DNA of 64,000 nucleotides from an uncultured bacterium (GTDB lineage Bacteria > Omnitrophota > Omnitrophia > Omnitrophales > Abzuiibacteriaceae): the NCBI GenBank assembly GCA_964387845.1, contig CAYLXA010000011.1, positions 32,001 to 96,000 on the forward strand, in the 5' to 3' direction. Every line of letters begins with the position of its first letter. Positions within the stretch are counted from its first letter, which is position 1. The notes below the pieces were generated by a model. It was not told the origin of the DNA. It did not search any database and saw only the letters and a list, made by a program, of their open reading frames with translations. A program made the translations under genes and the position numbers. Shown here one piece after another: positions 7,194 to 61,650 of this stretch.

Positions 7194-7219
7194 TTCGGTT
7201 AACTGAAGTTACAAAATTT

Positions 7220-7254
7220 AGGGGCAGTCCTTCGGGGCTGCCCCTATTTTTTTC
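7220..7254. terminator. Bidirectional Rho-independent terminator between convergent glnK and lpxB
   Basis: GC-rich hairpin AGGGGCAGtCC-TTCG-GGgCTGCCCCT followed by a T8 run. An A-run sits on the other side for the minus strand. Confidence 0.6.
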
Positions 7255-7255: not shown

Positions 7256-8398
7256 TTAGAGGTTGTTGAGGATGGCTAGGGCCGCTCGCTCGGCAGCGCC
7301 TGAAGGCCCGATGTTGTTTCGGATTTCTTCCAAGTCGCGGATTATGCGGCTTCTTGATTCTGGATTCTGGATTAAATCCAAAATTGCTTTTGAGATTGCC
7401 GCAGGTTTTGCGTCATGCTGGATGAATTCCTGGATAATTTTCCGGCCCGCTGCGACATTGGCGAGGCCGATGTAGGGGATTTGAATCAGCATTCGCCCCA
7501 ATAGGTAAGTCGTCCAATGCGTCTTATAAAGAATCACAAAAGGCGTGAGTGTCAGTGCCGTTTCAAGTGTAGCAGTTCCGGATGTGACAATTGCGGCATC
7601 GGAGGCGTGCAGCATGGGTTCTACCGCCTTGCCGCGTATCCGCTTAATCGATAGCATAGGCTCGTAATTTTTGAGAATTGAATCGTAGATTTCGAGGCCT
7701 ACATTTTCACTTTCAGGAAGTAGAAACGAAACCGATTTGGTTTCTTGTGAAATAAGCCGGGCAGATTCCAGAATGACGGGCAAAATCCTTTCGATTTCTG
7801 TTTTGCGTGAGCCGGGCAGAAGTGCAATCACTTTTTCGGCGTTTTCCACGCCGAATTCTTTCTTTAACGCCTCTTTTGATTTTGTAACCGGCGCGCGCTC
7901 TGCGAGCGGATGGCCCACCCAAGTGACGGGAACGCCGGCTTCCTGATACATTTTCTCTTCGAAATGAAATAAAACAAGCATCCGGTCGACCGTTTCCTTG
8001 ATGAGATGAATCCGGTGCTTGGCCCAAGCCCAAAGCTGCGGTGAGACATAATAAAAAGTTTTGATCCGCCGGTTGATTTGTTTTGCAAAGCGCAGATTGA
8101 AGCCGGGGTAATCAATCAGGATGAGGCAGTCGGGCTTTAACTTCAAAACATGCTGCAGTGTGGCATAGAAAATTTTCCGGATTTTGAAATATTTAGCCAG
8201 CACGTCGCCAAATCCGATGGCAGCCAGCGCGCAAAGGTCATCAAAGAGCTTGACGCCCTCGGCTTCCATTAATTTTCCGCCGAGGCCTTCAAATTTTAAA
8301 CCGGGATTTTGCTTTTTAAGCGCACGGACAAGCTCGGCACCGCGTTGGTCGCCTGAAGGTTCCCCCGCGATGAGAAAAATGGTCTTAGATTCAGGCAT
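7256..8398 (-). CDS. lpxB: Lipid-A-disaccharide synthase
   Basis: IFLIAGEPSGD N-terminal motif, about 380 aa. The start is taken at MPESKTIF (8398), overlapping the upstream gene by 8 nt. The longer ORF running to 8518 is probably an artefact. Confidence 0.85.
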   Translation of the reverse strand: MPESKTIFLIAGEPSGDQRGAELVRALKKQNPGLKFEGLGGKLMEAEGVKLFDDLCALAAIGFGDVLAKYFKIRKIFYATLQHVLKLKPDCLILIDYPGFNLRFAKQINRRIKTFYYVSPQLWAWAKHRIHLIKETVDRMLVLFHFEEKMYQEAGVPVTWVGHPLAERAPVTKSKEALKKEFGVENAEKVIALLPGSRKTEIERILPVILESARLISQETKSVSFLLPESENVGLEIYDSILKNYEPMLSIKRIRGKAVEPMLHASDAAIVTSGTATLETALTLTPFVILYKTHWTTYLLGRMLIQIPYIGLANVAAGRKIIQEFIQHDAKPAAISKAILDLIQNPESRSRIIRDLEEIRNNIGPSGAAERAALAILNNL

Positions 8399-9335
8399 TG
8401 GAGTACTTTGGGGAATTTTTTTTGATATCGTCAACGATCTGAAGCCCGATTTTGAGCGCATCGCGGGCTTCCACATCAACTTTTCCGTCGGTTTTTCCGG
8501 AGAGAACCGCCTGGACAAAACTTTCGAGTTCGGCTTTGAGCGGTTCGCCTTTTTGGATTTCCAATTTTTCGCTCGTGATGCCCAAGATTCCTTTTTTAAA
8601 GATCTGGGCGGTTTGCGCTTGATAATCGAGAGAGATGTAAGCGTCTTCCTGAAAGATCCGGATTTTGCGCTGTTTGTCGGGCGTTAGGCGCGAGGCCGTT
8701 AAATCAGCAACAGTGCCGTTTTTGAACCGGATTCGCACATTGGCGATGTCTTCGTGCGGCGTGAGCACATTGATGCCGACACAGTCCATGAACGCAATTT
8801 CGGATTTGACGAGCTGAAGCACGATATCGATATCGTGAATCATCATGTCGAGCACAACGCCGCAGTCTTTGACACGGTCGGTGAAAGCGCTTAGGCGGTG
8901 AATTTCGAGGAAACGGATGTTTCTTGCAATTTTTTGAATTTTTTGAAGCCCGGCGTTGTGCCGTTCTACGTGACCGACTTGGAGAACGAGTTTCTTTTGC
9001 TTTGCGATTTCAATTAATTCATCCGCTTCACCCAGTTCAAGCGTGATTGGTTTCTCGATCAAGACATGCGTCCCGGCTTCCATAAAAGGTTTTGCTACTT
9101 CATAGTGGTAAGCGGTCGGTACGACAACGCTGACGGCGTCGACTTTTCCGATCAAATGGCGGAAATCGGTCGTAAATTGTGTTCCAAGCTCCCTGGCTTT
9201 TTCTTCTTTGGATTTATCGCGGTCGCAAAGAGCAATCAAGTCAACATTGGGAAGGGAGGCGTAAATCCGGGCGTGTTCTTTGCCCAGATGCCCGATTCCG
9301 ATAACAGCAACTTTCAATTTTTTACCTGTATTCAT
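8391..9335 (-). CDS. Gfo/Idh/MocA-family NAD(P)-dependent oxidoreductase, co-operonic with lpxB
   Basis: N-terminal Rossmann motif VAVIGIGHLGKEH, with the EKP and GHxxRH motifs of the Gfo/Idh/MocA family. 314 aa. Confidence 0.75.
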   Translation of the reverse strand: MNTGKKLKVAVIGIGHLGKEHARIYASLPNVDLIALCDRDKSKEEKARELGTQFTTDFRHLIGKVDAVSVVVPTAYHYEVAKPFMEAGTHVLIEKPITLELGEADELIEIAKQKKLVLQVGHVERHNAGLQKIQKIARNIRFLEIHRLSAFTDRVKDCGVVLDMMIHDIDIVLQLVKSEIAFMDCVGINVLTPHEDIANVRIRFKNGTVADLTASRLTPDKQRKIRIFQEDAYISLDYQAQTAQIFKKGILGITSEKLEIQKGEPLKAELESFVQAVLSGKTDGKVDVEARDALKIGLQIVDDIKKNSPKYSNA

Positions 9336-9395
9336 AACCGAGTCGGCATTTTATCAGACGGGGCTTGAAAAGCAAATTGATAAAGTTTGCCGCAA

Positions 9396-9424
9396 TTGAC
9401 TTTCGTTTTTGAATTGGTTAGTAT
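9396..9424 (+). promoter_or_regulatory. Candidate sigma-70 promoter (TTGACT, 17-nt spacer, TAGTAT) for msbA
   Basis: Hexamers read from the sequence in the divergent intergenic region. Confidence 0.3.
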
Positions 9425-9476
9425 GGCTCGTTTTCTCTAAAATGTGATGTGACCTTCATTTAGAAAGTTTTAGGAT

Positions 9477-11231
9477 ATGGGCGTCTATAAGCGGCTTTTA
9501 GGATATGTTTACCCGCACCGGCACAGGCTGGCGATGGCTGTGGTGTGCATGTTTTTCCTTTCTATATCGCAGGTACTGGTTTCGGCCGTGCTTTATATCG
9601 TCGTTAACGGCTTTTACAACGAAGGTTACGTTATTATAGAAAATATTCCCCACGCGCCGGATTTTGTGCAAGGAATCCGGTTTCCGGTCACCTGGATTCC
9701 CATTATAGTTGTCGGCGTCTTTTTATTTCGCGGTGTTTTTGATTACGCCTCCAATTACCAGATGGCAGCTGTTGGTATCCGCGCAATCCGGAAAGTGCGC
9801 GATGATTTGTATGAAAGGCTGGTTCATCTGTCGCTTGATTTTTATTCGCGCGGGCGTACCGGCGAATTGATGAGCCGCATCTTAAACGACGTCGGATTTA
9901 TCCAGGGCGGTATTACGGATGTGCTGGTCGACCTTGTCAAACAACCCTTCGTTATTTTGTTCAACATCCCCATGATTTTCATTTGGGGCGGGCCGGTTGC
10001 GATCGCGGCAGTTTTGGTATTTCCGATTGTGGTGATTCCGATTGCCGCACTCGGTAAGCAGCTGCGCGGACTGACGCGGAAAATGCAGGAACGCACCGCC
10101 GATATTTCATCGATGCTCGAAGAAACTTTTACCGGCATCCGAATCGTCAAAGCGTTTAACATGGAACAGCGGGAAATCGAAAAATTCAAAGGCGTTAACC
10201 GCAGCGTTTTCGAGTTTTTCAAAAAAACAATTCGTGTGACCGTGATTCAGCGCCCGATCATCGAAGTGTTTGCCGCAATCGGTGCCGGCACGGCAATTTG
10301 GTTTGGCTATCAACATTTGACCCCTGACCGTTTCGTAGCGCTCATCGGATCGCTTTTTATTTTCTACGAGCCGTTTAAAAAACTGAGCAAGGTCAATAGC
10401 ACGATTCAACAATCTATTGCGGCCGGAAACCGGATTTTTGAAGTGATGGATCAAGTGCCTTCCGTGCAGAGCAAGCCCAATGCGGCGAAACTCGCGGCGC
10501 CGATTCAATCGGTTTTGTTCGACAACGTTCATCTTTCCTATGAAACCGGCAGTGAAATATTGAGCGGCATCTCAATCGAAGTGAAAGCAGATCAAGTTTT
10601 GGCGATCGTGGGTCCGAGCGGTTCCGGGAAAACTTCCTTGGTGAATATGATTCCGCGTTTTTATGATCCGACCAAAGGAAGCATCAAGATCAACGGGATT
10701 GATATCCGTGATTGTGAATTGAAATCACTCCGTGAACAAATCGGCATTGTGTCGCAAGAAACTGTTTTGTTTAACACAACGGTCATGGAAAACATTGCTT
10801 ACGGAAAACCTTCCGCAACTTTAGAGCAGGTGATTGAAGCCGCTAAAGCTGCGTTTGCTGACGAATTTATACGAGCACTGCCGAATGGATACGGAACGAT
10901 CGTGGGCGAAAAGGGCGTCAAGCTTTCCGGCGGTCAGCGTCAACGGCTTTCGATTGCGCGCGCGCTTCTCAAAAATCCGCCTATTTTAATTTTGGACGAA
11001 GCTACGTCACAGCTGGATACTGAAAGCGAAAGACAGGTTCAGGCCGCGATTGACCGCCTGATGCAGGGAAGGACCGTTTTTGTGATTGCGCACCGGCTTT
11101 CGACCATTCAGAGCGCAGACCGGATTATTGTATTGGAACGGGGAAAGATTGTGCAGTCCGGAACAAACGACCGGTTGCTGCAAGAAGAAGGTCCCTACAA
11201 ACGCCTTTACAACCTACAGTTTAATATTTAG
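9477..11231 (+). CDS. msbA: ABC transporter permease/ATPase, lipid A flippase-like
   Basis: 584 aa. An N-terminal 6-TM domain is followed by Walker A GPSGSGKTS, the ABC signature LSGGQRQR and Walker B ILILDEATS. It sits in an lpx neighbourhood. Confidence 0.7.
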   Translation: MGVYKRLLGYVYPHRHRLAMAVVCMFFLSISQVLVSAVLYIVVNGFYNEGYVIIENIPHAPDFVQGIRFPVTWIPIIVVGVFLFRGVFDYASNYQMAAVGIRAIRKVRDDLYERLVHLSLDFYSRGRTGELMSRILNDVGFIQGGITDVLVDLVKQPFVILFNIPMIFIWGGPVAIAAVLVFPIVVIPIAALGKQLRGLTRKMQERTADISSMLEETFTGIRIVKAFNMEQREIEKFKGVNRSVFEFFKKTIRVTVIQRPIIEVFAAIGAGTAIWFGYQHLTPDRFVALIGSLFIFYEPFKKLSKVNSTIQQSIAAGNRIFEVMDQVPSVQSKPNAAKLAAPIQSVLFDNVHLSYETGSEILSGISIEVKADQVLAIVGPSGSGKTSLVNMIPRFYDPTKGSIKINGIDIRDCELKSLREQIGIVSQETVLFNTTVMENIAYGKPSATLEQVIEAAKAAFADEFIRALPNGYGTIVGEKGVKLSGGQRQRLSIARALLKNPPILILDEATSQLDTESERQVQAAIDRLMQGRTVFVIAHRLSTIQSADRIIVLERGKIVQSGTNDRLLQEEGPYKRLYNLQFNI

Positions 11232-11277
11232 CCTCAGTTTTCTTTGTTTTTATCTGTAAATAAGCTATAAATCCTGC

Positions 11278-11306
11278 TTGCTCCCATCAGGCGATATTGA
11301 TATAAT
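11278..11306 (+). promoter_or_regulatory. Candidate sigma-70 promoter (TTGCTC, 17-nt spacer, TATAAT) for the rpsB-tsf operon, followed by a ~175-nt leader
   Basis: Perfect -10 hexamer with acceptable -35 and spacing. The leader contains a 9-bp stem hairpin (11343-11367). Confidence 0.4.
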
Positions 11307-11481
11307 TTCCTACTTTTTGGTTTCCCGCTCGTTCCGCAGGTCTTCATGTTTCACGACAACATGAAGGGCTTGAAAGTGAAGATGCGACAGGCGATTGTCC
11401 CGCCTATTTTTCCTGAAAAACAATCATTGGATTGAGCAGGTTGTAAAAAATAGTTTGTTCACTAGGAGGTTTATTTTGTCA

Positions 11482-12336
11482 ATGTCAGTAACTTTGAAGC
11501 AATTGTTGGAAGCAGGCGTTCATTTTGGCCATCAAACGCGCCGGTGGAATCCCAAAATGGCGAAGTATATTTTTGGCGAGAAGAACGGAATTTATATCAT
11601 CAATCTCGAGAAAACGCTCACAGCGCTTCAGTCTGCCTGCGAATATGTGAAGCAGGCGGTTTCGCGCGGCGAAGTGATTCTCTTTGTCGGTACCAAAAAG
11701 CAGGCGCAGGAATCCATCCGCACCGCAGCCGACGAGCTGCAAATGCCTTACGTCAATCAACGCTGGCTGGGCGGCATGCTGACCAACTATGAAACAATCC
11801 GCAAAAGTCTCCACAAGCTTGATGAAATCGATACGATGGAAAGAGAAGGCACCTATCAATTTCTTGCCAAGAAAGAAGTGAACCGGATCAAGAAAAAAGG
11901 CGAGAAGCTCAACAAGGTGCTTTCCGGAATCCGCAACATGAAGCGTTTGCCTGGCGCCGTTTTCATTATTGATCCCACAAAAGAAGAAATCGCAGTCCAA
12001 GAAGCCCGCAAGCTGGGCATTCCGATCGTTGCATTGATCGATACCAATTGCGATCCGGATTTGATCAATCATCCGATTCCAGGCAATGACGATGCGATCC
12101 GCTCCATCAAGCTGATTGTCGAAGCTGTGAAGCAAAGCGTGATTGAAGGCCGTAACGAACATCAACGCATTGCCGACGAAAAGGCACTTGCCGAAGCGGC
12201 CGAGACCGCTAAGCAGATGCAAGAATCCAGCGAAGAAGCTCAGGAAGAAATCTTGGAAATTGCAGATGAAGTTGTCGCAAAATTAGATGATGAAGACAAA
12301 CCCCGCGCCAAGAAAGCGCGCGTTAAAAGCGATTAA
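11482..12336 (+). CDS. rpsB: 30S ribosomal protein S2
   Basis: N-terminus [35 protein letters not shown] at 11464. The ORF-track start at 11395 is an upstream TTG extension. Confidence 0.92.
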
Positions 12337-12348
12337 GGAATTTAGATC

Positions 12349-13185
12349 ATGACTACTAATGTACATTCTTCTCAAGTGAAAGAACTCCGCGATATTACCG
12401 GAGCCGGCATGATGGACTGCAAGCAGGCGCTGCTTGAAACCGGCGGTGATATCGAAAAAGCAAAAGACTATCTCCGGAAAAAAGGCGTTGCCTCAGCCGA
12501 TAAGCGTGCGTCGAAAGAAGCTAAAGACGGTATGATTTTTATCCAGAACGACGGAAAAACCGGCGCCATGGCCGAAGTCAATTCCGAAACTGATTTCGTT
12601 GCACGGACAGATGATTTTCAAAAACTAGGCGCAGCAGCAGTCAAAGCAGTTGCCGAGAAAGGCGAAGCTGCGATTGAGTCGGATGCGATTCAAACACAGG
12701 CAAAAGAAGTCAGCGGAAAAATAGGCGAGAAGATTTCGGTCCGCCGCGCTGTCCGTTTTCAAACGAACGCAGGCCTCGTGGTTTCGTATCGCCACCACAA
12801 TCAAAAAATCGGTGTGATGGTTGAGCTTGCATTTTCGAATGCGGCACTGGCCCAAAATGCGGAAGTAGAAAAGCTGGGCAAAGATATCGCCATGCAGTCC
12901 GCCGCTCTTCGGGCTCCGTTTTTGAGCAAAGATCAAGTATCTGCCGAATTTTTAGAGCGTGAAAAATCGATTTTCAGGGATCAAGTCAAGGACAAACCGG
13001 CCAATGTGCAGGATAAAATTATTGACGGCAAATTACAGAAGCGCTTCGAAGAAGTTTGTCTGCTCGAGCAGAAATCCGTGATTGATCCGGCAAAATCCAT
13101 CGCGCAATTGGTGGATGCGCTCGGGAAAAAACTTGGAAGCCCGATCACCGTAAAACGTTTTCAGCGCTTTGAAATCGGTACTTGA
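12349..13185 (+). CDS. tsf: Elongation factor Ts
   Basis: Begins with a UBA-like N-terminus (VKELRDITGAGMMDCKQAL). 278 aa. Follows rpsB. Confidence 0.92.
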   Translation: MTTNVHSSQVKELRDITGAGMMDCKQALLETGGDIEKAKDYLRKKGVASADKRASKEAKDGMIFIQNDGKTGAMAEVNSETDFVARTDDFQKLGAAAVKAVAEKGEAAIESDAIQTQAKEVSGKIGEKISVRRAVRFQTNAGLVVSYRHHNQKIGVMVELAFSNAALAQNAEVEKLGKDIAMQSAALRAPFLSKDQVSAEFLEREKSIFRDQVKDKPANVQDKIIDGKLQKRFEEVCLLEQKSVIDPAKSIAQLVDALGKKLGSPITVKRFQRFEIGT

Positions 13186-13215
13186 TATCATTGAAAATTT
13201 CAAAGCGTTTATTAA
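13166..13215 (+). terminator. Hairpin (11-bp stem CGCTTTGAAAT/ATTTCAAAGCG) spanning the tsf stop, followed by a T-rich tract; possible partial terminator or attenuator between tsf and pyrH
   Basis: Inverted repeat read directly from the sequence. A second 10-bp stem hairpin lies at 13229-13280. Confidence 0.3.
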
Positions 13216-13329
13216 TATGAATCAAGTACCGCACTTACTACGCATCGGACCTTATTTGTTTATTAATGAGGTAAGTGCGGCGCTGAATAATCAATAGAAC
13301 ACAGCCTGAAACCAACGGAGCCTGTCTCT

Positions 13330-14049
13330 ATGAAAAGTAAAAGAGCCGCGTTTAAGCGCGTTGTTCTGAAAATCAGCGGTGAAGCACTGCAGGGAAGCCA
13401 GCATTACGGCATTGACCACAAAGTGGTTCTCACCATCGCCAAACAAATCAAAACCGTCAACGATTCCGGCGTTGAAATCGCTTGCGTTATCGGTGCGGGC
13501 AATATTTTCCGCGGCATGCAGGCTGTTCGTCAAGGGATGGACCGCGTTAATGGTGACTACATTGGCATGCTGGCGACGATGATCAATTCGCTTTCACTGC
13601 AAGATGCGCTCGAAAAGTTGGGCGTGCATACCCGCGTGATGACGGCCATCCCGATGGAAAAGCTAGCGGAGCCTTACATTCGCCGCCGCGCACTCCGGCA
13701 CTTGGAGAAACGGCGTGTGGTTATTTTCGCCGCCGGAACCGGCAATCCTTATTTCACGACCGACACCGCCGCTGCACTGCGCGCCATTGAAATCAATGCC
13801 GATGCGGTATTAAAAGCAACGCGGGTCGACGGTGTTTATTCGGGCGATCCATTGAAGGACAAAAAGGCTAAAAGATTTGTCCGGCTTAAATATTTAGATG
13901 TTCTGAAAAAACAGCTGCAGGTCATGGATGCGACCGCAGTGTCATTGTGTATGGAAAACAAGCTTCCGATTGTCGTATTTAATTTAAATACGCCGGGCAA
14001 TATTGAAAAAGTAATGCGCGGCGATTCGATCGGAACCGTCGTTAGTTAA
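13330..14049 (+). CDS. pyrH: Uridylate (UMP) kinase
   Basis: [11 protein letters not shown]…GAGNIFRG signature motifs. 239 aa. Confidence 0.92.
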
Positions 14050-14069
14050 TTCAGCAAGCGAGGATTATT

Positions 14070-14642
14070 ATGCAAACCGCAACTTCTGCCAAATCTGTTC
14101 TCGATGAAACCCAGAACCGCATGCAAAAATCCGTTGATGCGACCCATAGCGAATTCCGCAGTATCCATACGGGCCGTGCTTCCATTGCATTGGTCGAAGC
14201 TATTCCGGTTGAGTGCTACGGATCATCCAAGCCGCTAAAAGGTATCGCGTCCATCACAACGCCGGATGCTAAGACGATCAATATTCAACCTTGGGATCCG
14301 TCGATCATTAGCGCAATCGATAAGGCCATCGTCAAAGCCGAGCTTGGCTTGGTTCCTTCAAATGACGGCCGCGTGGTTCGGATTAAAATTCCGTCACTGA
14401 CGGCAGAGCGGCGCAAAGAATTGGATAAAATTATTCGCAAAATCGCAGAAGACGGGCGCGTTTCAATCCGCAACATCCGCCACGAAGCAAATGAAGCGGT
14501 GAAGCGGCTTGAAAAAGCGAAGACGGTCAGTGAAGATGAATCGCGGGGTACTCAGAAAAAAGTTCAGGAGGCCACCGATCGCTTTACGAAAATGGTTGAT
14601 GAGCTTCTGGCGAAGAAGGAAGTTGAAATTCAGGAAGTTTAA
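14070..14642 (+). CDS. frr: Ribosome recycling factor
   Basis: 190 aa, typical RRF sequence. GAGGA RBS upstream. Confidence 0.92.
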   Translation: MQTATSAKSVLDETQNRMQKSVDATHSEFRSIHTGRASIALVEAIPVECYGSSKPLKGIASITTPDAKTINIQPWDPSIISAIDKAIVKAELGLVPSNDGRVVRIKIPSLTAERRKELDKIIRKIAEDGRVSIRNIRHEANEAVKRLEKAKTVSEDESRGTQKKVQEATDRFTKMVDELLAKKEVEIQEV

Positions 14643-14649
14643 AGACACA

Positions 14650-14679
14650 GTATCTAGTATCTCGTATCTAGTATCTAGT
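14650..14679. repeat. Tandem heptamer array (GTATCTN) x4, left arm of a long inverted structure
   Basis: GTATCTA GTATCTC GTATCTA GTATCTA GT was read directly from the sequence, immediately after the frr stop. Confidence 0.7.
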
Positions 14680-14743
14680 TGAACTTATTATTATATGAAT
14701 AGATATTGTTTCTTTCACGTTTTCCTTCCGTTCAATTCTTTAC

Positions 14744-14778
14744 TAGATACTAGATACCAGATACAAGATACGAGATAC
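14744..14778. repeat. Tandem heptamer array (NAGATAC) x5, the reverse complement of the left arm and so its right arm
   Basis: TAGATAC TAGATAC CAGATAC AAGATAC GAGATAC was read directly from the sequence. It ends 9 nt before tRNA-Lys. Confidence 0.7.
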
Positions 14779-14787
14779 GGAAATAAC

Positions 14788-14861
14788 GGGCCCATAGCTC
14801 AGTCTGGTAGAGCACTGCCCTTTTAAGGCAGGTGTCGTTGGTTCAAATCCAACTGGGCTCA
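14788..14861 (+). tRNA. tRNA-Lys (anticodon TTT)
   Basis: Cloverleaf folded by hand. The acceptor GGGCCCA/TGGGCTC is followed by the discriminator A. The anticodon stem CTGCC/GGCAG carries the loop CTTTTAA. The T-loop is GGTTCAAATCC. Confidence 0.85.
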
Positions 14862-14961
14862 ATTTGATTTCGGATTGTGGAGTGCAGATTGAGAGAATAG
14901 ATTGATGATTGTTGATTCCGAAATCCGAAATTAACAATCCGAAATTGTATAATTTGTTAAT

Positions 14962-15035
14962 GTCCCCATCGTCTAGCCTGGTCAGGACAAGAGCTTTTCA
15001 AGCTCTCGGCAGGGGTTCAAATCCCCTTGGGGACA
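14962..15035 (+). tRNA. tRNA-Glu (anticodon TTC)
   Basis: The acceptor GTCCCCA/TGGGGAC is followed by A. The anticodon stem AGAGC/GCTCT carries the loop TTTTCAA. A GTCTAG D-arm typical of tRNA-Glu is present. Confidence 0.85.
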
Positions 15036-15051
15036 CTTTTCTCCGGTATTC

Positions 15052-16266
15052 ATGCCAAAATTTATTCGCTCAAACCTGATTATTTTTGCTGCGGGGTTTT
15101 TGCTCATCTCTATTTTTTCCACTATTCGTTACGAACGGTTTGCATCGAAACGCCAGTACGGGGATTTTCACGTTTACTATGTAACCGGTGAACGGATGCT
15201 GGCAGGCCAATCGATTTATGTCGATGAAACCGAAAAAGTAACGCCCTATAAATATTCACCGCTCACTGCATCTTTCTTTTCCTTACTCGCACTTTCAAAC
15301 GAAAGAACCGCAGCCGGTGTTTGGCACTGCCTCAATCTGGTCTTTTTGCTGGTAAGCGTAATCGCCGGGGGAGGGCTTGCGCGAAAAATTTCAGACGGTC
15401 ACGGAAAATATTTCGTTGCATGGTCTTCGATTTTAGCCGTTATCGGAATTTCGCCGGCCATTCTCCATTGCATGAATTCGGGGCAGGTGGGAATCGCGAT
15501 TTTATTTTGCTATGTGCTGGGCGTTTATTTCACCTCCCGCGATCGGGACATCGCCGCCGGATTTTTCTTTGCGCTATCGTGCATGTTTAAATATCTTCCG
15601 ATTTTGATTTTGCCTTATTTTATATGGCAGAAAAAATGGAAACTGGTTTGGTCTATGATCGGCTGGCTGTTTGTGCTTCATTTTTTGCCGGCGCTTTGGC
15701 TCGGCTGGGATATCAATCTTCGGTATCTCCGGCAATTTCTTCCGTTTTTGACCGGAACCACGCTGGATCATATTTCTCTCCTGGATTTCAAAAATCAGTC
15801 CATGTGGGCGTATTTATACCGGCTGTTTTTCTATGATTTGGGCTTGTTTGAAATCAGAAATCACCCGCACTGGATCTTAGCTTTCGGGGCAATCCTATTC
15901 ACCGCGCTTTACGGACTTGTGATTTCTAGGACGCGTAGAGGATTTCTAGTGCTAGGCTGTTCGTTGCTGGCAATTTTGATCGTGATCTTCAACCCTAATG
16001 CTTGGAAGCATAATTTTGTCCTCTTTTTGCTTCCATATCAAATTTTACTTGCCGCGGCGCTGCAGCTTGGTTGGCAAAGCCGGCAAGCCACGCTTTTGAT
16101 GCTGGTCAGCATCTTATTTTTCGCCTCAAACCAGTCTCTGGTCGGTTGGGGCGGCCGGTTGGAACTGATGTCTTTATCGATTTTGCTTCTGGCCGGGCTG
16201 GTTCTATTCGCCGGATTGCTTCTCAGCCGGTTCCCTCAGGATCCTGCCCCAAAACACAACCTTTAG
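15052..16266 (+). CDS. Polytopic membrane protein, GT87/DUF2029-like (GT-C fold) glycosyltransferase candidate
   Basis: 404 aa with more than 10 predicted TM helices. A DFHVYY motif near the N-terminus resembles the DUF2029/PimE-like family. Family assignment is from memory and is moderate. Confidence 0.5.
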   Translation: MPKFIRSNLIIFAAGFLLISIFSTIRYERFASKRQYGDFHVYYVTGERMLAGQSIYVDETEKVTPYKYSPLTASFFSLLALSNERTAAGVWHCLNLVFLLVSVIAGGGLARKISDGHGKYFVAWSSILAVIGISPAILHCMNSGQVGIAILFCYVLGVYFTSRDRDIAAGFFFALSCMFKYLPILILPYFIWQKKWKLVWSMIGWLFVLHFLPALWLGWDINLRYLRQFLPFLTGTTLDHISLLDFKNQSMWAYLYRLFFYDLGLFEIRNHPHWILAFGAILFTALYGLVISRTRRGFLVLGCSLLAILIVIFNPNAWKHNFVLFLLPYQILLAAALQLGWQSRQATLLMLVSILFFASNQSLVGWGGRLELMSLSILLLAGLVLFAGLLLSRFPQDPAPKHNL

Positions 16267-16405
16267 GGCTTTATCTGACCCTTTAACCCAATATCTAGTA
16301 TTACCCAAAAAGTCTTTCTAAAGCCGTTAAGTTTCTCTAAGTTGTTGACGTACTTGTTGTTTAGGCGATATCGGTGATTCAAAAGTCGCATTTTGGAGGT
16401 GGCTC

Positions 16406-16549
16406 ATGATCACTAAAATGTTAAAAGTATTTGTTCTGACTGTTGCCATGACCTCAACTGTGGTAACCGCATCTTTCGCTTTTGACGGGAAAGATGCGCT
16501 TTCTGGTGTAGTTGTCAAATCAACACTTAAAGCAACGACTTGTCTTTGA
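16406..16549 (+). CDS. Unannotated small ORF (47 aa) with a signal-peptide-like N-terminus, a candidate secreted peptide
   Basis: A GGAGG RBS lies 6 nt upstream of the ATG. The peptide is MITKMLKVFVLTVAMTSTVVTASFA|FDGKDALSGVVVKSTLKATTCL. Not in the ORF track because it is under 60 aa. Confidence 0.3.
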   Translation: MITKMLKVFVLTVAMTSTVVTASFAFDGKDALSGVVVKSTLKATTCL

Positions 16550-17177
16550 CTATCTCTTGAAACCTTCCCGATCTTTTTTCTTCATAACAGCAGCAGGCTT
16601 TTTACTCTTTATTTTGATTTCACACCATCCAGCGGTTCATAGTTTGGATGTTTATTGGATGGGCATATTATACCGTAGCGATATTTCGTTCTTTAATATT
16701 GTGTTTATTCCGTTTATTTTGTGGGGATCGCCTCAAATTATAATCCCCGCGTTTCTTTTGTTATCATTCTGGTTTTATCAGCAAAAGAACTTTAAAGCGG
16801 CTTATTTATGTCTTGCGTCTCTTATAATCGCAACAGGCCTTGAGTTTGTGCTTAAGAATATTTTATGGGTTCCCAAGCCTTCCACAGAGTCATTCGGATC
16901 GCGGTTTCCATTTAAATGGACAGTTGCTTCTTACAAAACCCAGTCGTCATTGCCTAGCGGGCATGTTCTTAGAACGGTTCTTTTTATCTTATTCCTCGTT
17001 CATTGGATTCCTGCGATTCGTAACCGCAAGGCCCTGAAAGTATTTTTAATGTTCTTGCCCTTCATTACAGCTTTTGCTGCAGTCTATTACGGTGCGCACT
17101 GGACAAGAGATGCCGTCGCAGGAGCGTGGCTTGCGGTCTTGGCTTTTCTAGTCTGTGATAGATACGTTGCCTCTTGA
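16512..17177 (+). CDS. PAP2-superfamily (acid phosphatase / lipid phosphate phosphatase) membrane protein
   Basis: PAP2 motifs PSGH (SLPSGHV) and H-x3-D (AHWTRD) are present, with several TM helices. The start is uncertain (TTG at 16512 or an internal ATG at 16656). Confidence 0.65.
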   Translation: MSNQHLKQRLVFDYLLKPSRSFFFITAAGFLLFILISHHPAVHSLDVYWMGILYRSDISFFNIVFIPFILWGSPQIIIPAFLLLSFWFYQQKNFKAAYLCLASLIIATGLEFVLKNILWVPKPSTESFGSRFPFKWTVASYKTQSSLPSGHVLRTVLFILFLVHWIPAIRNRKALKVFLMFLPFITAFAAVYYGAHWTRDAVAGAWLAVLAFLVCDRYVAS

Positions 17178-17306
17178 ATGTTCGGCTGCCTTGACACTCT
17201 ACTTTCCTTATGATAATTTAAGCCCACTTTTTAAAAATCAAACTCATGTAGTTTGATTTTTAGCGTTAGTTTCCGGACGCTAAATTCCAAAAGGAGGGAC
17301 TTCAGC

Positions 17307-17825
17307 ATGGCAAAAAAGCTGGAAGAAAAGATTTTAGACGTTGATGCGAGTATGCAGGGAACGATCACATTTCGTGATCCTGTTAACCTGCGTATTAACG
17401 GAAGTTTTGAAGGCCGTTTGGATGTCCGAGGGAATTTGACCATTGGTGAAAATGCTAACGTGAAAGCCGATATCAGAGGCGATAAAATCTTAGTTGCAGG
17501 AAAAGTGACCGGTAATATCACGGCGTCTGCCAGTCTGGCGGTTATATCGCCTGCGGTGATTCGCGGCAACATTAAGTCCCCGATTTTCAGTGTTGCTGAA
17601 GGTTCCGTTATTGAAGGTCAAGTATCGATGACAAATTTACAAAATTTAGATGCCAATAGCACGCTGTCGTTGCGCGATTTAGCCCAGTACCTTGAAGTTG
17701 AGATGCGCGTCATTGAAGAGTGGGCGCGTGAGAAAAAAATTCCCGGCCGTCAAGAAAACGGCGAGTGGCGGTTTAATAAAGCCACGATTGATAAATGGGT
17801 GCAGGACGAAAAAGTAAAATTGTAA
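17307..17825 (+). CDS. Bactofilin (DUF583 polymer-forming beta-helical cytoskeletal domain) fused to a C-terminal excisionase-type helix-turn-helix (HTH_17) DNA-binding domain
   Basis: Residues ~20-120 show the bactofilin repeat pattern (…RINGSFEGRLDVRGNLTIGENANVKADIRGDKILVAGKVTGNITA…). The C-terminal 50 aa (LSLRDLAQYLEVEMRVIEEWAREKKIPGRQENGEWRFNKATIDKWV) is a typical excisionase/MerR-like HTH. AAGGAGGG RBS before the ATG at 17307. Confidence 0.65.
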   Translation: MAKKLEEKILDVDASMQGTITFRDPVNLRINGSFEGRLDVRGNLTIGENANVKADIRGDKILVAGKVTGNITASASLAVISPAVIRGNIKSPIFSVAEGSVIEGQVSMTNLQNLDANSTLSLRDLAQYLEVEMRVIEEWAREKKIPGRQENGEWRFNKATIDKWVQDEKVKL

Positions 17826-17876
17826 AGTTGATCCGATTCTTTCCGATTTTGTTCCACCAAAGATTTTGCATTTGAA

Positions 17877-18170
17877 ATGCTGCTAACCGAAGAAGAAGTC
17901 CAGAATTATTTAGGAGTTGACCGTTCTCATATTGAAAGGTTGATGAAACGCGGGAAACTCACGGCTTTTCGTGTCGGCGGCTCCTATCTCCGATTCCGCA
18001 AAGAGGAAGTCATTGCACTTAAAGCAGGTAAGCGCTTTGTGCCGGCCGAACAAATGGGCCGCAGGAGTTGGCTGGATCGTGCGCGTGATTTTTGGAAGTT
18101 TTACAGTTTTTATGTCCTCTCGTCGATTTTGATTGCACTCGCGGTTCTCCTGATTATCCAATACATCTAA
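17877..18170 (+). CDS. Excisionase-type HTH (HTH_17) DNA-binding protein with a C-terminal transmembrane anchor
   Basis: The N-terminal segment LTEEEVQNYLGVDRSHIERLMKRGKLTAFRVGGSYLRFRKEEV is the HTH_17 signature. The C-terminal segment FYVLSSILIALAVLLIIQYI is a hydrophobic helix. Confidence 0.6.
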   Translation: MLLTEEEVQNYLGVDRSHIERLMKRGKLTAFRVGGSYLRFRKEEVIALKAGKRFVPAEQMGRRSWLDRARDFWKFYSFYVLSSILIALAVLLIIQYI

Positions 18171-18175
18171 TATTC

Positions 18176-18556
18176 ATGACCGTTCCGTTCCAAATTGGCG
18201 TTGATATCGTGAGCGTGCGCCGGATGGAAGAATCCATCAAGCGTCACGGAAAATCCTTTCTCGATAAAGTATTCACGGCCGGCGAGCAATCTTATTGCGA
18301 AAAAAAGCGCAATAAGTATGAAAATTACGCTGCACGGTTTGCTGCCAAAGAAGCAGTGATTAAAGCCAAGGGCGGCGGTGCGGGCCGGATGCGTTTTAAA
18401 GATATCGAAGTCAAACGAGGCAAGAACGGCAAGCCATTTATTTCGATTACTCCTCAAGTCCGGCGTGAAATGTTCATCAAACCAAAAGCCGAATTTGAGC
18501 TGACTATGGCGCACGAACGGGAATTTGCGATCGCAACCGTCCTGATGTCAGCCTAG
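18176..18556 (+). CDS. acpS: Holo-[acyl-carrier-protein] synthase (4'-phosphopantetheinyl transferase)
   Basis: GVDIVSV(R)R…F(A)AKEA(V)IKA motifs typical of AcpS. About 126 aa from the ATG at 18176. Confidence 0.85.
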   Translation: MTVPFQIGVDIVSVRRMEESIKRHGKSFLDKVFTAGEQSYCEKKRNKYENYAARFAAKEAVIKAKGGGAGRMRFKDIEVKRGKNGKPFISITPQVRREMFIKPKAEFELTMAHEREFAIATVLMSA

Positions 18557-18560
18557 CGCT

Positions 18561-19268
18561 ATGCGTTATCTGATCGTTAACGCCGACGATTTTAATCTCA
18601 CCCAAGGTATTTCCCGCGCGGTTTTTTGCGCGCATGACCGCGGCATTGTGAATTCCACAAGCGTGATGATTAATTTTCCGCTGTCCTCATATCAAATATC
18701 GGGCCTCAGTAAACGCCCGGGCCTTAGCGTTGGGCTTCATTTGAATGTCACATCGGGTTCTCCGAAATTCAAAAAGGCAAGCGCATACCTATCCGGCAAA
18801 TTTGACCCGCATGTTTTATTCGCTGAATATGAATCACAGATCAAAAAGTTTCAAACAGTGTTTAAAAGGAAGCCGGATCATTTAGATACGCATCATCACA
18901 TTCATGCATCGCCAAAAGTTGCGTTGGTCTTATCCAAAATTTCGAGAAAATATAAAATCCCGGCCCGTCGGTCGGCTACGCTTCGAAGCGCAGCGACAAC
19001 CGATTATTTTTTTGGGAATTTATCGCCGCAAAAATATTGGACTCACACAAGTTTGCTGACGATTCTTGAAAACTTACCGCAGGGGACGAGCGAAATTATG
19101 TGTCATCCCGGTTTTGTTGATTCCGACCTGCGTTCCAAAAGTTCGTTCTTAAAGGGGCGCGAATGCGAGCGCAAGCTTTTTTCGAAACGATCATGGCGCT
19201 TGTTTTTGCGCCGCCACGGCATTCAACAGGTAAAATTTTCAAGCCTGCTTCCGGGCTCTGTGTTATAA
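18561..19268 (+). CDS. ChbG/HpnK/YdjC-family carbohydrate deacetylase
   Basis: N-terminal LIVNADDFNLTQG (YdjC signature NADDFG). 235 aa. Confidence 0.7.
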   Translation: MRYLIVNADDFNLTQGISRAVFCAHDRGIVNSTSVMINFPLSSYQISGLSKRPGLSVGLHLNVTSGSPKFKKASAYLSGKFDPHVLFAEYESQIKKFQTVFKRKPDHLDTHHHIHASPKVALVLSKISRKYKIPARRSATLRSAATTDYFFGNLSPQKYWTHTSLLTILENLPQGTSEIMCHPGFVDSDLRSKSSFLKGRECERKLFSKRSWRLFLRRHGIQQVKFSSLLPGSVL

Positions 19269-19278
19269 TACGCGGCTT

Positions 19279-20049
19279 ATGAGAGTCCTGATTACCAATG
19301 ACGATGGTATTCACTCGCCGGGGTTAAGGGCGATTGTGGATGCGATCCACAAAGAAGCCGAATGCCTGGTAGTAGCACCGCACAAGGAAAGGTCGGCGAC
19401 GGCGCATTCTATTTCTCTTTATGATGAAATTTGGGTCGAATCGGTTCACATCGGGGACGGGCTAAAAGGATATTCGGTCGAAGGAACGCCGGCTGATTGT
19501 GTGAAATTTGCGTTTGCGGAGCTTTTGAAGAAGAAAGTCGACCTCATTATATCGGGCATTAACCTGGGGTTAAATACGGGTATCAGCGTTTATTATTCAG
19601 GGACTGTGTCGGCGGCGCGTGAAGGATTGATCAACGGCGTTCCGTCGATCGCCATTTCGCAAGGCAAGCAGCAAACGCGCGATTTCGCATATGCCGGGAA
19701 GCTCGTATCAAAGTTGGTGCATGGCTATAAAAATTTACATTTTCCGAAAGATACATTTTTAAATATCAATGTACCTCCCGTCGAATCTCAGCAGGTGAAA
19801 GGGATTCGAGTGACGAAACAGGCGCATTCACGGTTTGACGAATGGTTTGAGGAAATTAAAAAATCCGGATCTAACGGCCGGAAACCGTATCAAGTCCGCG
19901 GCGATATCGAAATTTTAAGTCCGGACGGCACGAGCGATGAAGAAGCGATTCGAGAAGGTTATGTGTCGATGACGCCACTTCTTTTGGATTCAACGCATTA
20001 CAAGCAGATGTCCCATTTTGAGAAATGGGTGAGGGATAACGGAATTTAG
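19279..20049 (+). CDS. surE: 5'/3'-nucleotidase SurE
   Basis: MRVLITNDDGIHSPGL N-terminus. 256 aa. Confidence 0.9.
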   Translation: MRVLITNDDGIHSPGLRAIVDAIHKEAECLVVAPHKERSATAHSISLYDEIWVESVHIGDGLKGYSVEGTPADCVKFAFAELLKKKVDLIISGINLGLNTGISVYYSGTVSAAREGLINGVPSIAISQGKQQTRDFAYAGKLVSKLVHGYKNLHFPKDTFLNINVPPVESQQVKGIRVTKQAHSRFDEWFEEIKKSGSNGRKPYQVRGDIEILSPDGTSDEEAIREGYVSMTPLLLDSTHYKQMSHFEKWVRDNGI

Positions 20050-20066
20050 TTTTTTGGAAATTTGAA

Positions 20067-20258
20067 TTATTTCGGAACGGCGCCGTCAAGTGTCTCGAAC
20101 ACAATGGTGACGAGGCTGTGGCAGCGCGGGCACTTGATTTGCTTGAAAGCTTGGATGTTGTCGTGTTTGGGCCGGTACATAATGCTCAAGATCTTGGTTG
20201 AGAACTTGGCTTCTTCGCCGGACCACTGACAGGATGTACAAGCGTATGTCTGTTTCAT
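20067..20258 (-). CDS. Small zinc-ribbon protein (two CxxC pairs), hypothetical
   Basis: 63 aa with CTSC…CPRC. It converges on the surE end. Confidence 0.4.
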   Translation of the reverse strand: MKQTYACTSCQWSGEEAKFSTKILSIMYRPKHDNIQAFKQIKCPRCHSLVTIVFETLDGAVPK

Positions 20259-20469
20259 CGTGTAGAGTTGTATCGGCAGCGGGTTAGCGAACTTAAGAAA
20301 TTTGCAGGAAATTTTTAAGATTTTTTATCAGTAATACTAGATTTAGTGGTATCTAAGGTAAAATACCACAGGATTATGGGTAGCCCCGCGTCGCTGACTT
20401 TGTCAGCTCCTGGGGCGAACATCTTCCTTTATGAATAAGCACCTGAGACTTTTAAGGCAGAAGATATTC

Positions 20470-20542
<73 letters not shown>

Positions 20543-20594
20543 AATTTAGTTTTTGATATGTTGTTGTTTGTTATCACGTTGTACTAATCCTTGT

Positions 20595-20680
20595 GCCGAA
20601 GTGGCGGAACTGGCAGACGCGCTGGACTCAAAATCCAGTGGTGCTCAAACACCGTGTGGGTTCGATTCCCTCCTTCGGCA
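20595..20680 (+). tRNA. tRNA-Leu (anticodon CAA), class II with long variable arm
   Basis: The acceptor GCCGAAG/CTTCGGC is followed by the discriminator A. The anticodon stem CTGGA/TCCAG carries the loop CTCAAAA. A long variable arm is present. 86 nt. Confidence 0.85.
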
Positions 20681-20797
20681 CTGATTTTCATTAAAAATTA
20701 AATAACACTATTTGGGAATCAGCGCTGCCCCTGAATCTCGATAAAACACGTTTTTTCGTTTCTTGATATTCAGGGGCGGCACTGACTTTCATTAAAG
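20676..20797. repeat. 20-nt direct repeats CGGCACTGAYTTTCATTAAA (20676-20695, overlapping the tRNA-Leu 3' end, and 20778-20797) flanking an 82-nt palindromic insert
   Basis: Repeats with 1 mismatch. The insert carries a 10-bp inverted repeat GCCCCTGAAT/ATTCAGGGGC. Confidence 0.55.
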
Positions 20798-20872
20798 TGT
20801 TCCATTCGATTATTAATCAAAGTCAGCGCCTGCACTTGAGTGGCAAAACTCAAGTGCGGCACGTGTAAAGTT

Positions 20873-23329
20873 ATGACCGACAAACACAAACCCTATCCAT
20901 TCGACCAAATTGAACCCAAATGGCAAAAGCATTGGGTTCAAAATAAAACTTTTAAGACGCCGGATCCGGGAGAGCCGGGAAGCGAAAAGCCGAAATTTTA
21001 CATTCTCGACATGTTTCCGTATCCTTCGGGTGCGGGGCTTCATGTCGGCCACCCGGAAGGCTACACTGCCACCGACATTCTCGCACGCTATAAACGTATG
21101 CGTGACTTCAATGTCCTGCATCCGATGGGCTGGGATGCGTTTGGACTTCCGGCCGAGCAGCACGCACTTGAAACCGGCACGCACCCCAAAGCCACCACCG
21201 AGAAAAACATTGGTGTTTTCCGCAGGCAAATCCAATCGATCGGTTTCAGCTACGACTGGGACCGCGAAGTCGATACAACCGATCCCGATTATTTCAAATG
21301 GACACAATGGATTTTTCTCCAACTGTACAAAAAAGGGCTCGCTTACGAAGCGGAAGTTCCGGTGAATTGGTGCGAAGCGCTTGGGACTGTGCTCGCCAAC
21401 GAAGAAGTGATTGACGGCAAATCGGAGCGCGGCGGCCATCCGGTTGTGAGAAAGCCGATGCGGCAGTGGATTTTAAAAATCACGGAATATGCGGACCGGC
21501 TGCTGGAAGATTTGGAAGAACTGGATTGGTCGCCTGCTATTAAAGAAATGCAGCGCAACTGGATCGGAAAGTCCGTCGGTGCTGAAGTGGATTTTCAAGT
21601 AGCGGGTTCGAATGAGAAAATCCGCGTATTTACAACTCGTCCCGATACTTTATTTGGCGCGACTTACATGGTTTTAGCGCCTGAGCATCCGCTTGTCAAA
21701 AAAATGGCAACCGCTGATCAGAAAAAATTTGTTGAAGCTTACATTGATCAGACCGCGCGTAAAACTGACTTGCAGCGCACAGACCTAGCCAAAGAAAAAA
21801 CGGGTGTCTTTACCGGCGCTTACGCCATCAATCCCGTCAATCAAAAACAAATTCCGATTTGGATTGCGGATTACGTTTTGATCAGTTACGGCACAGGAGC
21901 CATCATGGCAGTTCCTGCGCACGATGAGCGCGACTTTGAATTTGCGACAAAATTCAAACTCCCGATTGTCGAAGTGATTTCAGGCGGCAATATTTCGAAC
22001 GAAGCTTTCACCGGTATCGGAAAATGCATCAACTCAACCACGCCGGATAAATCATTTTCTATCGACGGACTTCCGAGTGACGCTGCAAAGGAAAAAATCA
22101 CAAAATGGCTCGAAGATAAAAAAATCGGCGAGAAATCAATTCAGTACAAGCTGCGCGACTGGCTTTTCTCGCGCCAGCGGTATTGGGGCGAGCCGATTCC
22201 GGTGATTCATGTCGACGGCAAACCAAAACCGCTTTCTGAGAAAGATTTGCCCATCATGCTTCCAGAAACTAAATCTTACAAACCAACCGGAACCGGCGAA
22301 AGTCCGCTCGCCGGGATTCCGGATTGGGTCAACACCAAAGATCCTGAAACAGGGAAGCCGGCGAAACGCGAAACCAATACGATGCCGCAATGGGCCGGTT
22401 CCTGCTGGTATTATTTGCGCTACCTGGATCCGAAAAATGGCAAACAACTCGTTGATCCCAAAAAAGAAAAATATTGGATGCCGGTCGACCTTTATGTCGG
22501 CGGTGCCGAGCACGCGGTGCTTCATTTATTGTACGCACGCTTTTGGCATAAAGTGCTTTACGATGCCGGCGTGGTTTCAACAAAGGAACCTTTTCAAAAA
22601 CTTGTTAATCAAGGAATGATTTTGGGCGAGGACAATCAGAAAATGTCCAAATCGCGCGGCAATGTGATCAATCCCGATGACGTGATCCGCGAATATGGCG
22701 CAGACAGTCTGCGGCTTTATGAAATGTTCATGGGCCCGCTTGAAATGGTGAAGCCGTGGTCCATGCGCGGGGTGGAAGGTGTTTCACGGTTTTTGGCGCG
22801 TGTTTGGCGCCTTTTTGTTGATCGTGACGACAAGCTTCAAAAAACGATTGAAAACCGGCAGCCGACGAATGATGAATTACGCGTTCTGCATCAAGCGATT
22901 CAAAAGGTGACGGACGATCTGGACAACATGCGTTTCAACACAGCGATTTCAGCGCTGATGGTGTTTGTGAACGAAATGACAAAAGCTGCAACGCAGCCAA
23001 AATCAATGCTCGAAACCTTTCTGCTGCTTTTGGCGCCGTTTGCGCCGCACATTGCCGAAGAACTTTGGAGCCGGCTGGGGCATTCGCAAACACTGGCTTA
23101 TGAAAAGTGGCCTTCTTACGATAAGAAGTACTTAGTTCAGGACGAGGCCGAAATTGCCGTTCAAGTATTGGGTAAAATCAAGGCACGCATCGTCGTTTCG
23201 CGCAATATATCGGAAGATGAATTAAAGGCAAAAGTACTCGAACTTCCTGATATTAAACCCCTTATCGACGGCAAAAAGATAAATAAAATCTTTATAGTCC
23301 CCGGGAGATTGGTTAATATCTTAGTCTAA
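20873..23329 (+). CDS. leuS: Leucine--tRNA ligase
   Basis: HVGHPEGY (HIGH-type) motif, KMSKS as QKMSKSRGN, and a large CP1 editing insertion. 818 aa from the ATG at 20873. Confidence 0.92.
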
Positions 23330-23337
23330 CAGCGATG

Positions 23338-23414: not shown

Positions 23415-23430
23415 TTTGAAATTTGAAACT

Positions 23431-61482: not shown

Positions 61483-61650
61483 TTCAGTTAGTTCTTGAAA
61501 AGGACTAATTTCCTAACTTCTTAAAGACTTTTCTAACAAAAAATCTCGTCACGACAGATGTAAATCTGGTGATACTAGATTTTTCATGTTTTTTAAATGC
61601 CGGACATTGACACAGTCAATTTGGTTGTGTAACTTTTACGCAAACCAGTC

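Follow-up and report, generated by a model that had tools for sequence, protein, structure and literature searches.

We found that the junction between frr, which encodes the ribosome recycling factor, and a tRNA-Lys gene in an uncultured bacterium of the phylum Omnitrophota carries two facing arrays of tandem heptamers, GTATCTN and NAGATAC, whose complementary arms can form an imperfect stem of ~30 bp. The junction lies in a 64,000-nt stretch of contig CAYLXA010000011.1 (assembly GCA_964387845.1), referred to here as the window, and the element, locus 1, is a heptamer-repeat hairpin of the short tandemly repeated repetitive (STRR) type, an already known kind found here in Omnitrophota and beside tRNA genes. 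Such heptamer tandem repeats have been known in cyanobacteria, as STRR sequences, since 1990. The reading we favour, at a probability of about 0.4, is that locus 1 is a double-stranded RNA (dsRNA) stem, located in a transcribed spacer, by which RNA is processed, protected or insulated and whose arms grew by 7-nt slippage. Locus 1 adds to the known examples a well-behaved one from an uncultured phylum, with both arms conserved over deep divergence, and arrays in the inverted hairpin arrangement turn up repeatedly in Omnitrophota, Bacteroidota and the Candidate Phyla Radiation (CPR), within one and the same housekeeping operon.

The facing arrays, which had been read in the sequence in a first-pass annotation of this DNA, were recovered by Tandem Repeats Finder as period-7 arrays of 4.4 copies with 91% matches (14649–14679) and 5.4 copies with 90% matches (14741–14778), and they are the sole strict tandem arrays with periods of 5 to 12 within the window (Table 1). 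Their 7-nt, contiguous units agree with the view of that annotation that this is not a CRISPR array. On the upstream side frr is the final gene of an rpsB-tsf-pyrH-frr cluster, preceded by the genes for S2, EF-Ts and UMP kinase; on the downstream side the right arm ends 9 nt 5′ of tRNA-Lys, and the loop between the arms (62–64 nt) has ~28% G+C. An inverted-repeat finder matched 30-nt arms with 93% and 90% complementarity in two registers 7 nt apart, together with a 35-nt arm pair of 83% complementarity, bearing out both the imperfect ~30-bp stem and the multiple pairing registers proposed earlier. Moreover, RNA folding of 14640–14790, which the annotation had put forward as a check, gave −44.8 kcal/mol versus −25.1 ± 3.5 for 200 dinucleotide shuffles (z = −5.59), none of which folded as well. 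The possibility of an assembly artefact, also raised at that stage, is ruled out by an independent Logan assembly of run SRR15237813, which is 100% identical to window positions 8226–20499 (12,274 nt), arrays included, and by orthologous arrays in four other assemblies. An E-value search of 13800–24000 against Rfam returned four tRNAs and sub-threshold chance matches only, with plain tRNAs and no trnL(UAA) group I intron at locus 1.

The nearest genomes by Frr are metagenome-assembled genomes (MAGs) of Candidatus Omnitrophota, the best Frr match being 74% in a collection of GTDB representatives. A comparison of the junction in related genomes, again suggested by the first-pass annotation, revealed the GTATCTC/GAGATAC heptamers on both arms between frr and tRNA-Lys in five genomes, namely the window and four relatives (SurE 66–100%, Frr 73–100%). 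In L037 (Frr 87%) the left arm reads GTATCTC GTATCTC GTGAAGC GTATCTC and the right arm GAGACAC TAGATAC GAAATGC GAGATAT; L087 (SurE 84%) has the identical left arm and loop, and a right arm that differs from that of L037 at about five positions. L038 (Frr 73%) has GTATTTC GTAGTTA GTATCTC GTATTTC facing GAGATAC GAAATAC, and L117 (SurE 66%) has one CGTATCTCG unit facing GAGATAC GAGGAAC GAGATGT. The numbers of left and right units are therefore 1/3 in L117, 4/2–3 in L038, 4/4 in L037 and L087, and 4.4/5.4 in the window. In L001 (Frr 74%), the frr/tRNA-Lys spacer is only 48 nt long and contains a small GC hairpin. When the orthologs were aligned, identity to the window was 73–77% for the left arm, 56–68% for the right arm and 21–39% for the loop. 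Because the arms outlast the loop across orthologs, the paired arms are old and preferentially retained, with a unit number that drifts, and the alignments support copy-number change of the slippage type. That both arms are conserved over deep divergence and the loop is not argues that the paired arms are themselves of importance. Consistent with a retained stem, the L037 and L087 junctions folded with z = −5.0 and −4.9 respectively, and RNAalifold on four orthologs kept the stem, with 17 arm pairs of which two show compensatory changes.

How such a stem could act can be outlined as follows. Transcription of rpsB-tsf-pyrH-frr most likely continues into tRNA-Lys/tRNA-Glu. Co-transcription of frr and the tRNAs is plausible because lenient scans of the five orthologs and L001 yielded no positionally conserved promoter in the loop, and because the L001 spacer is so short and holds just its GC hairpin. 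It would place both arms on one RNA, where the complementary arrays would pair, as in the computed fold, into the imperfect stem of ~30 bp right 3′ of frr and 9 nt 5′ of tRNA-Lys. By analogy with the stems of intervening sequences (IVSs), this could be an RNA-level boundary element and a substrate for double-strand-specific processing of the RNase III type. It may also be a hairpin that protects the 3′ end of frr mRNA after tRNA-Lys has been freed by RNase P, and may keep the adjoining RNAs from misfolding. Complementarity of the arms would be kept by selection or by arm-to-arm template switching. As to the 7-nt periodicity, it would be a by-product of stem growth if, as a published hypothesis holds, replication slippage favours 7-nt units in bacteria, and its best explanation lies in the growth of the stem by slippage and not in the function of the stem. 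The excess of period-7 arrays in the 866-kb control set described below agrees with this. If the RNA-processing reading is true, hairpins of this type would be a common, unannotated punctuation of bacterial operons.

The first-pass annotation had placed a tRNA promoter, TTGAAC-17-GATATT, in the loop. This candidate matches the consensus at 8 of 12 positions, below the threshold of the promoter scan, which did not call it, and its position is conserved in no ortholog; we have therefore discarded it.

Several observations weigh against a functional RNA stem. The stem of L038 is weak (z = −1.3), and the approximately five right-arm differences between L037 and L087 have no compensating changes in the left arm. 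The covariation term from RNAalifold is just −0.69 kcal/mol, in an alignment of four sequences, too few, whose repeats align ambiguously. The heptamer sequence is conserved rather than covarying, which fits sequence-specific protein binding or concerted evolution equally well. Hairpins come and go among very close relatives, as described below, so single copies are dispensable. Finally, co-transcription, cleavage and stabilisation are all steps that we infer.

Conservation in five genomes of the heptamer sequence, and not of the pairing only, also bears on a DNA-level alternative in which the arrays are iterons or operators, with a protein on inverted GTATCTC units regulating tRNA-Lys/tRNA-Glu transcription or insulating it from frr. 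Such a role would accommodate the weak promoter-like sequence in the loop and the finding that the 9-mer ATCTAGTAT, which spans the point where two GTATCTA units meet, has three more sites in the window (16293–16301, 20334–20342 and 61572–61580), all intergenic, where 0.04 matches are expected window-wide. We nonetheless consider it quite unlikely, since no promoter is positionally conserved among orthologs, no candidate binder was identified, and the other loci have unrelated heptamers, even between abutting open reading frames (ORFs), so that each would need its own protein. Moreover, given the established geometry of the B-DNA helix, a 7-bp spacing puts successive sites ~240° apart, which is unusual for cooperative binding.

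The additional ATCTAGTAT sites could be proto-arrays or a dispersed motif. Two of the three have the 12-mer GTAATACTAGAT in common, the site upstream of tRNA-Ala faces a GTATCTA unit, and that at 61539–61584 is within a hairpin with 21-nt arms.

Table 1. Coordinates in the window of the heptamer-repeat hairpins and the genes next to locus 1.
Feature	Position	Strand	Details
frr (ribosome recycling factor)	14070–14642	+	PF01765 RRF on identical product; stop codon TAA at 14640–14642
Left arm of locus 1, GTATCTN ×4.3	14650–14679	+	Starts 8 nt past the frr stop; GTATCTA GTATCTC GTATCTA GTATCTA GT
AT-rich loop/spacer of locus 1, 62 nt	14680–14741	+	No ORF and no conserved promoter
Right arm of locus 1, NAGATAC ×5.3	14742–14778	+	(AC)TAGATAC TAGATAC CAGATAC AAGATAC GAGATAC; reverse complement of left arm
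tRNA-Lys(UUU)	14788–14861	+	ARAGORN; Rfam tRNA, 71.4 bits
Hairpin with 7-base periodicity, tRNA-Lys/tRNA-Glu spacer	14864–14945	+	NNNGATT-type units and TCCGAAA units; inverted arms
tRNA-Glu(UUC)	14962–15036	+	ARAGORN, Rfam
leuS/GH35 hairpin (locus 2), GCTWCAA ×5 and TTGTAGC ×4	23337–23414	+	Fills the gap from the leuS stop (23329) to the GH35 start

Two further hairpins of this architecture were found in the window. A second locus with a different heptamer, as claimed in the first-pass annotation, is real (locus 2): Tandem Repeats Finder detected period 7 at 23337–23372 (5.1 copies) and 23386–23411 (3.7 copies), and its 29-nt arms are 76% complementary, with a fold (z = −2.1) that is less exceptional than that of locus 1. 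The other, in the tRNA-Lys/tRNA-Glu spacer (14862–14961), had been missed; it shows a period-7 autocorrelation of 0.53, a fold with z = −2.8 and inverted arms at 14864–14890 and 14917–14945. A period-7 autocorrelation above 0.5 was seen in only 3 of the ~30 intergenic regions of the window, the remainder being at ~0.25. All three hairpins are intergenic, between co-directional genes or stable-RNA genes (mRNA–tRNA, tRNA–tRNA and ORF–ORF), and are built from unrelated heptamers.

Comparison with relatives revealed a rapid turnover of individual hairpins through gain, loss and replacement. Locus 2 is shared by the window (5/4 units) and L087 (4/5 units; fold z = −4.5). L037 lacks it, despite being very close to L087 and nearly identical to it at the frr locus; there the leuS stop is followed directly by the next ATG (TAAATG). 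Locus 2 is missing from the more distant L115 and L118 as well. Conversely, L087 has an extra hairpin after surE (TTNAAAG/CTTTNAA) with no counterpart in the window, and the heptamer-repeat hairpin of the tRNA-Lys/tRNA-Glu spacer is kept in L037 and replaced by unrelated hairpins in L087. The leuS/GH35 presence/absence polymorphism spans ~100 nt (L037 19534–19540 versus window 23327–23434 and L087 13960–14070), and no target-site duplication is visible at this site. As regards dispersed elements of the REP, BIME or MITE type, the 64 kb covered contain hairpins of unrelated heptamers on the one hand and the recurring 9-mer ATCTAGTAT on the other. The surE hairpin of L087 sits exactly between the stops of surE and of a convergent 63-amino-acid (aa) ORF.

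This turnover has to be considered together with a general bias towards period 7. In a control set of de-duplicated loci anchored on frr and drawn from many phyla (866 kb), we counted 17 tandem arrays of period 7 versus 0–6 for each other period from 4 to 15, and in 219 kb of Omnitrophota DNA 11 versus 0–7. Both figures are as expected if the arrays are a neutral by-product, that is, tolerated junk that arose when a small ancestral inverted repeat (CGTATCTCG...CGAGATACG) grew by 7-nt slippage and palindrome symmetrisation. The same reading would account for the gain and loss of hairpins between close relatives (locus 2 absent in L037, the surE hairpin in L087 only), for the variation in unit number among orthologs and among contigs that encode identical proteins of the IVS family described below, and for the single unit that makes up the L117 left arm. 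It is also favoured by the occurrence of GTATCTN as plain one-strand arrays, of three or more units and up to ~12, in 36 IMG/VR viral contigs (L120–L155), giant-virus MAGs included. None of these 36 contigs has a strict inverted partner of at least two units or a gene of the IVS protein family, and they are uninformative on function. What speaks against neutrality is that both arms keep the same heptamer over a divergence that erased the loop, which concerted evolution could mimic, and that the arms remain complementary to each other, for which concerted evolution does not obviously account. Moreover, in the surveyed loci inverted pairs were formed by period-7 arrays only and lay in intergenic spacers only. 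On balance we think a purely neutral origin somewhat unlikely.

Contrary to what had been supposed in the first-pass annotation, the inverted heptamer hairpins are not genome-specific, and they recur in Omnitrophota, Bacteroidota and CPR. Beyond the orthologous sites in relatives, the same architecture is found in termite-gut Bacteroidales and in CPR, around IVS-protein genes of seven phyla, and in published cyanobacterial and Coxiella sequences. In the termite-gut Bacteroidales, hairpins without an ORF occupy the same operon in L045, L051, L052, L058 and L063. In L045, AATGGTT/AACCATT units lie right after frr (z = −10.8) and are followed by T5 (TTTTT); in L052, GAATGAA/TTCATTC units lie between pyrH and frr, followed by T9; and L051, L058 and L063 have other heptamers between frr and dnaE. 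Inverted heptamer arrays were also identified in CPR loci, and L007, L010 and L011 provide more examples.

The T-runs that follow the L045 and L052 hairpins raise the possibility that locus 1 is an unconventional intrinsic terminator or insulator that ends the frr operon, as would its very stable stem immediately past the stop codon and the small GC hairpin at the same place in L001. This we judge very improbable: a stem around 62 nt bears little resemblance to the geometry of a terminator; none of the three window hairpins is followed by a U-tract or was called by the terminator scan; and locus 2 separates leuS and GH35, which abut directly in relatives. A canonical terminator at locus 1 was likewise rejected, the sequence past the stem being GGAAATAAC, in agreement with the earlier statement that this is not a canonical GC-rich terminator; canonical ones occur elsewhere in the window, for example at 7213–7252.

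Heptamer arrays of the same inverted kind were found around genes of the IVS-protein (IVP) family, defined by PF05635/TIGR02436 and annotated as ‘23S rRNA intervening sequence protein’, ‘four helix bundle protein’ or Avd-like. In L010 (15380–15793), four AATTACG and four CGTAATT units, 350 nt apart, enclose a 117-aa PF05635/TIGR02436 gene, and close homologs in Chitinophagales, Acidobacteria and another genome are all flanked by AATTACG/CGTAATT, with unit numbers that differ between contigs encoding an identical IVP. A Magasanikiibacteria contig has two IVP genes, one with AATTNNN/NNNAATT units and the other, right after frr, with 9–10-mers. All 12 plasmid-borne IVP genes, which come from Cyanobacteria, Bacteroidota, Bacillota, Spirochaetota and Chloroflexota, are flanked by inverted arrays, each with its own heptamer. 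We compared 18 independent IVP genes from seven phyla with 400 control ORFs. A period-7 score of at least 12/14 was reached upstream of 11 of the 18 IVP genes (6 of 400 controls), downstream of 13 (4 of 400) and on both sides of nine (0 of 400), and upstream/downstream complementarity was at least 15/18 for 14 of the 18, compared to 8 of the 400 controls. IVP genes, on the evidence of these 18, are thus almost always enclosed by inverted short-tandem-repeat arrays, and these are nearly always heptamers. In the two IVP cassettes that were folded, the arrays formed a terminal stem of 26–30 bp in both the minimum free energy and the centroid structures. We found no paper stating a general link between IVPs and heptamer stems in the literature searched, whose incomplete coverage makes this weak evidence. 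The L054 IVP loci are at 16777–17250 and 10550–11000; other IVP loci are L089–L102, with those on plasmids at L103–L114.

Since other phyla have IVP cassettes in spacers of this operon too (upstream of pyrH in L010, downstream of frr in L054), locus 1 might be a miniature, ORF-less derivative of an IVS/four-helix-bundle cassette, with arrays that are the terminal inverted repeats left after ORF loss. The enrichment of inverted, period-7 flanks around IVP genes, the terminal stems that these cassettes form and the presence/absence polymorphism of locus 2 all agree with such an origin. However, tblastn and a profile built from 121 IVP sequences detected no IVP gene in either the window (64 kb) or ~155 kb of DNA from related Omnitrophota, so the window hairpins are ORF-less. 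In addition, there is no visible target-site duplication, the loop of 62 nt is too short to be examined for ORF remnants, and the different heptamer at each window locus means that these are not copies of one element. Descent from a cassette is accordingly improbable in our estimation.

A wider proposal, which we put forward as doubtful, is that inverted heptamer arrays are the nucleic-acid partner of IVP proteins: each IVP gene would travel within a stem of 4–5 heptamers per arm, the pentameric protein, or RNase III together with it, would recognise that stem, and ORF-less hairpins would be miniature or orphaned selfish ‘IVS-like’ elements in the transcribed spacers of essential operons. If true, it would unite STRR hairpins, the trnL P6b stem and 23S IVSs under a common explanation. 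Although collateral to the analysis of locus 1, the IVP association is its most interesting output, as it ties heptamer stems to the sole case with biochemistry, the RNase III cleavage of the Coxiella IVS stem, and offers an experimental handle on a 35-year-old puzzle.

Comparison with published systems places locus 1 among heptanucleotide long simple sequence repeats (LSSRs) and STRR arrays, in that it has at least three head-to-tail 7-nt units, is non-coding and varies in copy number among relatives, and among STRR- and P6b-type hairpins, in that its complementary heptamer arms form a stem-loop. In cyanobacteria, 7-bp STRR hairpins are found between hupS and hupL and elsewhere, and roles in stabilising transcripts or in coupling translation have been suggested for them (PMC2670836). 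Those of Nostoc, Anabaena and Lyngbya hupS-hupL resemble locus 1 in being 7-bp tandem units that are intergenic or intercistronic and hairpin-capable, but the window element is from Omnitrophota, is made of other heptamers and consists of two separate arrays around a 62-nt loop beside tRNA genes. Moreover, STRR families recur genome-wide with few common units, whereas recurrence in the present case was assessed over 64 kb.

A second analogue is P6b of the Nostoc tRNA-Leu(UAA) group I intron, which is made of TDNGATT (Class I) or NNTGAGT (Class II) heptamers and changes in length through gain or loss of units on either arm, with replacement of the whole stem between relatives (PMC4476775, PMC3488679). 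Degenerate heptamers on both arms, unit gain and loss and stem replacement are common to P6b and the window hairpins; P6b, moreover, lies in a tRNA transcript, and the NNNGATT units of the tRNA-Lys/tRNA-Glu spacer resemble Class I. Unlike P6b, the window element is outside any intron and has no catalytic RNA context, and GTATCTN is unrelated to the P6b motifs.

The 23S IVS of Coxiella burnetii has a 28-bp terminal stem with tandem GACAGAT units, two or three depending on the strain, upstream of the S23p ORF, and RNase III cuts this stem at the start of the first GACAGAT repeat (PMC4990558). As in locus 1, an inverted-repeat stem (~28 bp in Coxiella) holds tandem heptamers whose number varies, and the Coxiella stem is part of a stable-RNA precursor. 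Locus 1 has the terminal inverted-repeat stem with tandem heptamers of an IVS cassette but lacks a PF05635 ORF between its arms; its loop contains no ORF of any kind, the window has no PF05635 gene, and the element lies outside 23S rRNA.

Among long simple repeats, heptanucleotides predominate in most bacterial genomes, and Mrazek (2007) proposed that slippage is tied to the polymerase footprint, both as reported through PMC4679880 and PMC4692102. Locus 1 is like these LSSRs in being intergenic, in having a unit length that is over-represented relative to others and in varying in copy number among relatives. Inverted pairs are found among the GGGAATC arrays of Xanthomonas and the GGGGAYT arrays of Nostoc (PMC4692102), but these LSSRs are G-rich and have been discussed as G-quadruplexes, and inversion, which is exceptional among them, is defining in the window element. 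Marine Beggiatoaceae carry TAACTGA repeats, also found in Cyanobacteria and Bacteroidetes, as 2–6 intergenic copies near gene starts, with 169 direct sets versus one indirect set and a proposed role in translational regulation (PMC4679880). They share with locus 1 the short intergenic heptamer arrays, and differ in that one heptamer is used genome-wide and almost always in direct orientation. Compared with a Rho-independent terminator, finally, the stem is stable and lies just past a stop codon, but it is AT-rich and 30 bp long, has a 62-nt loop and lacks a U-tract.

Further features of these regions were noted in passing. In L038, the segment upstream of tRNA-Lys (10730–10900) contains tandem units of ~61 nt that resemble partial duplications of the tRNA 5′ end: each opens with ~11 nt from the start of the tRNA (GAGCCCGTAGC), and a hairpin (GACGTTTTTTGAAAACGTC) comes next. 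An inverted repeat at 20719–20785 of the window, downstream of tRNA-Leu and upstream of leuS, has 27-nt arms with 81% complementarity and a 13-nt loop; it is conserved in L037 (16870–16940), has no 7-base periodicity and has no match in Rfam. In L087 (11180–11380), the tRNA-Ala/tRNA-Leu pair lies on the minus strand, inverted relative to the window (20470–20681) and L037, with collinear flanking genes. In the window, a 63-aa ORF at 20067–20258 on the minus strand is convergent with surE and encodes two CxxC pairs (MKQTYACTSCQW...KCPRCHS...); L037 and L087 conserve its sequence, and gene calls right after surE in L087 and L118 include minus-strand genes of 63 aa.

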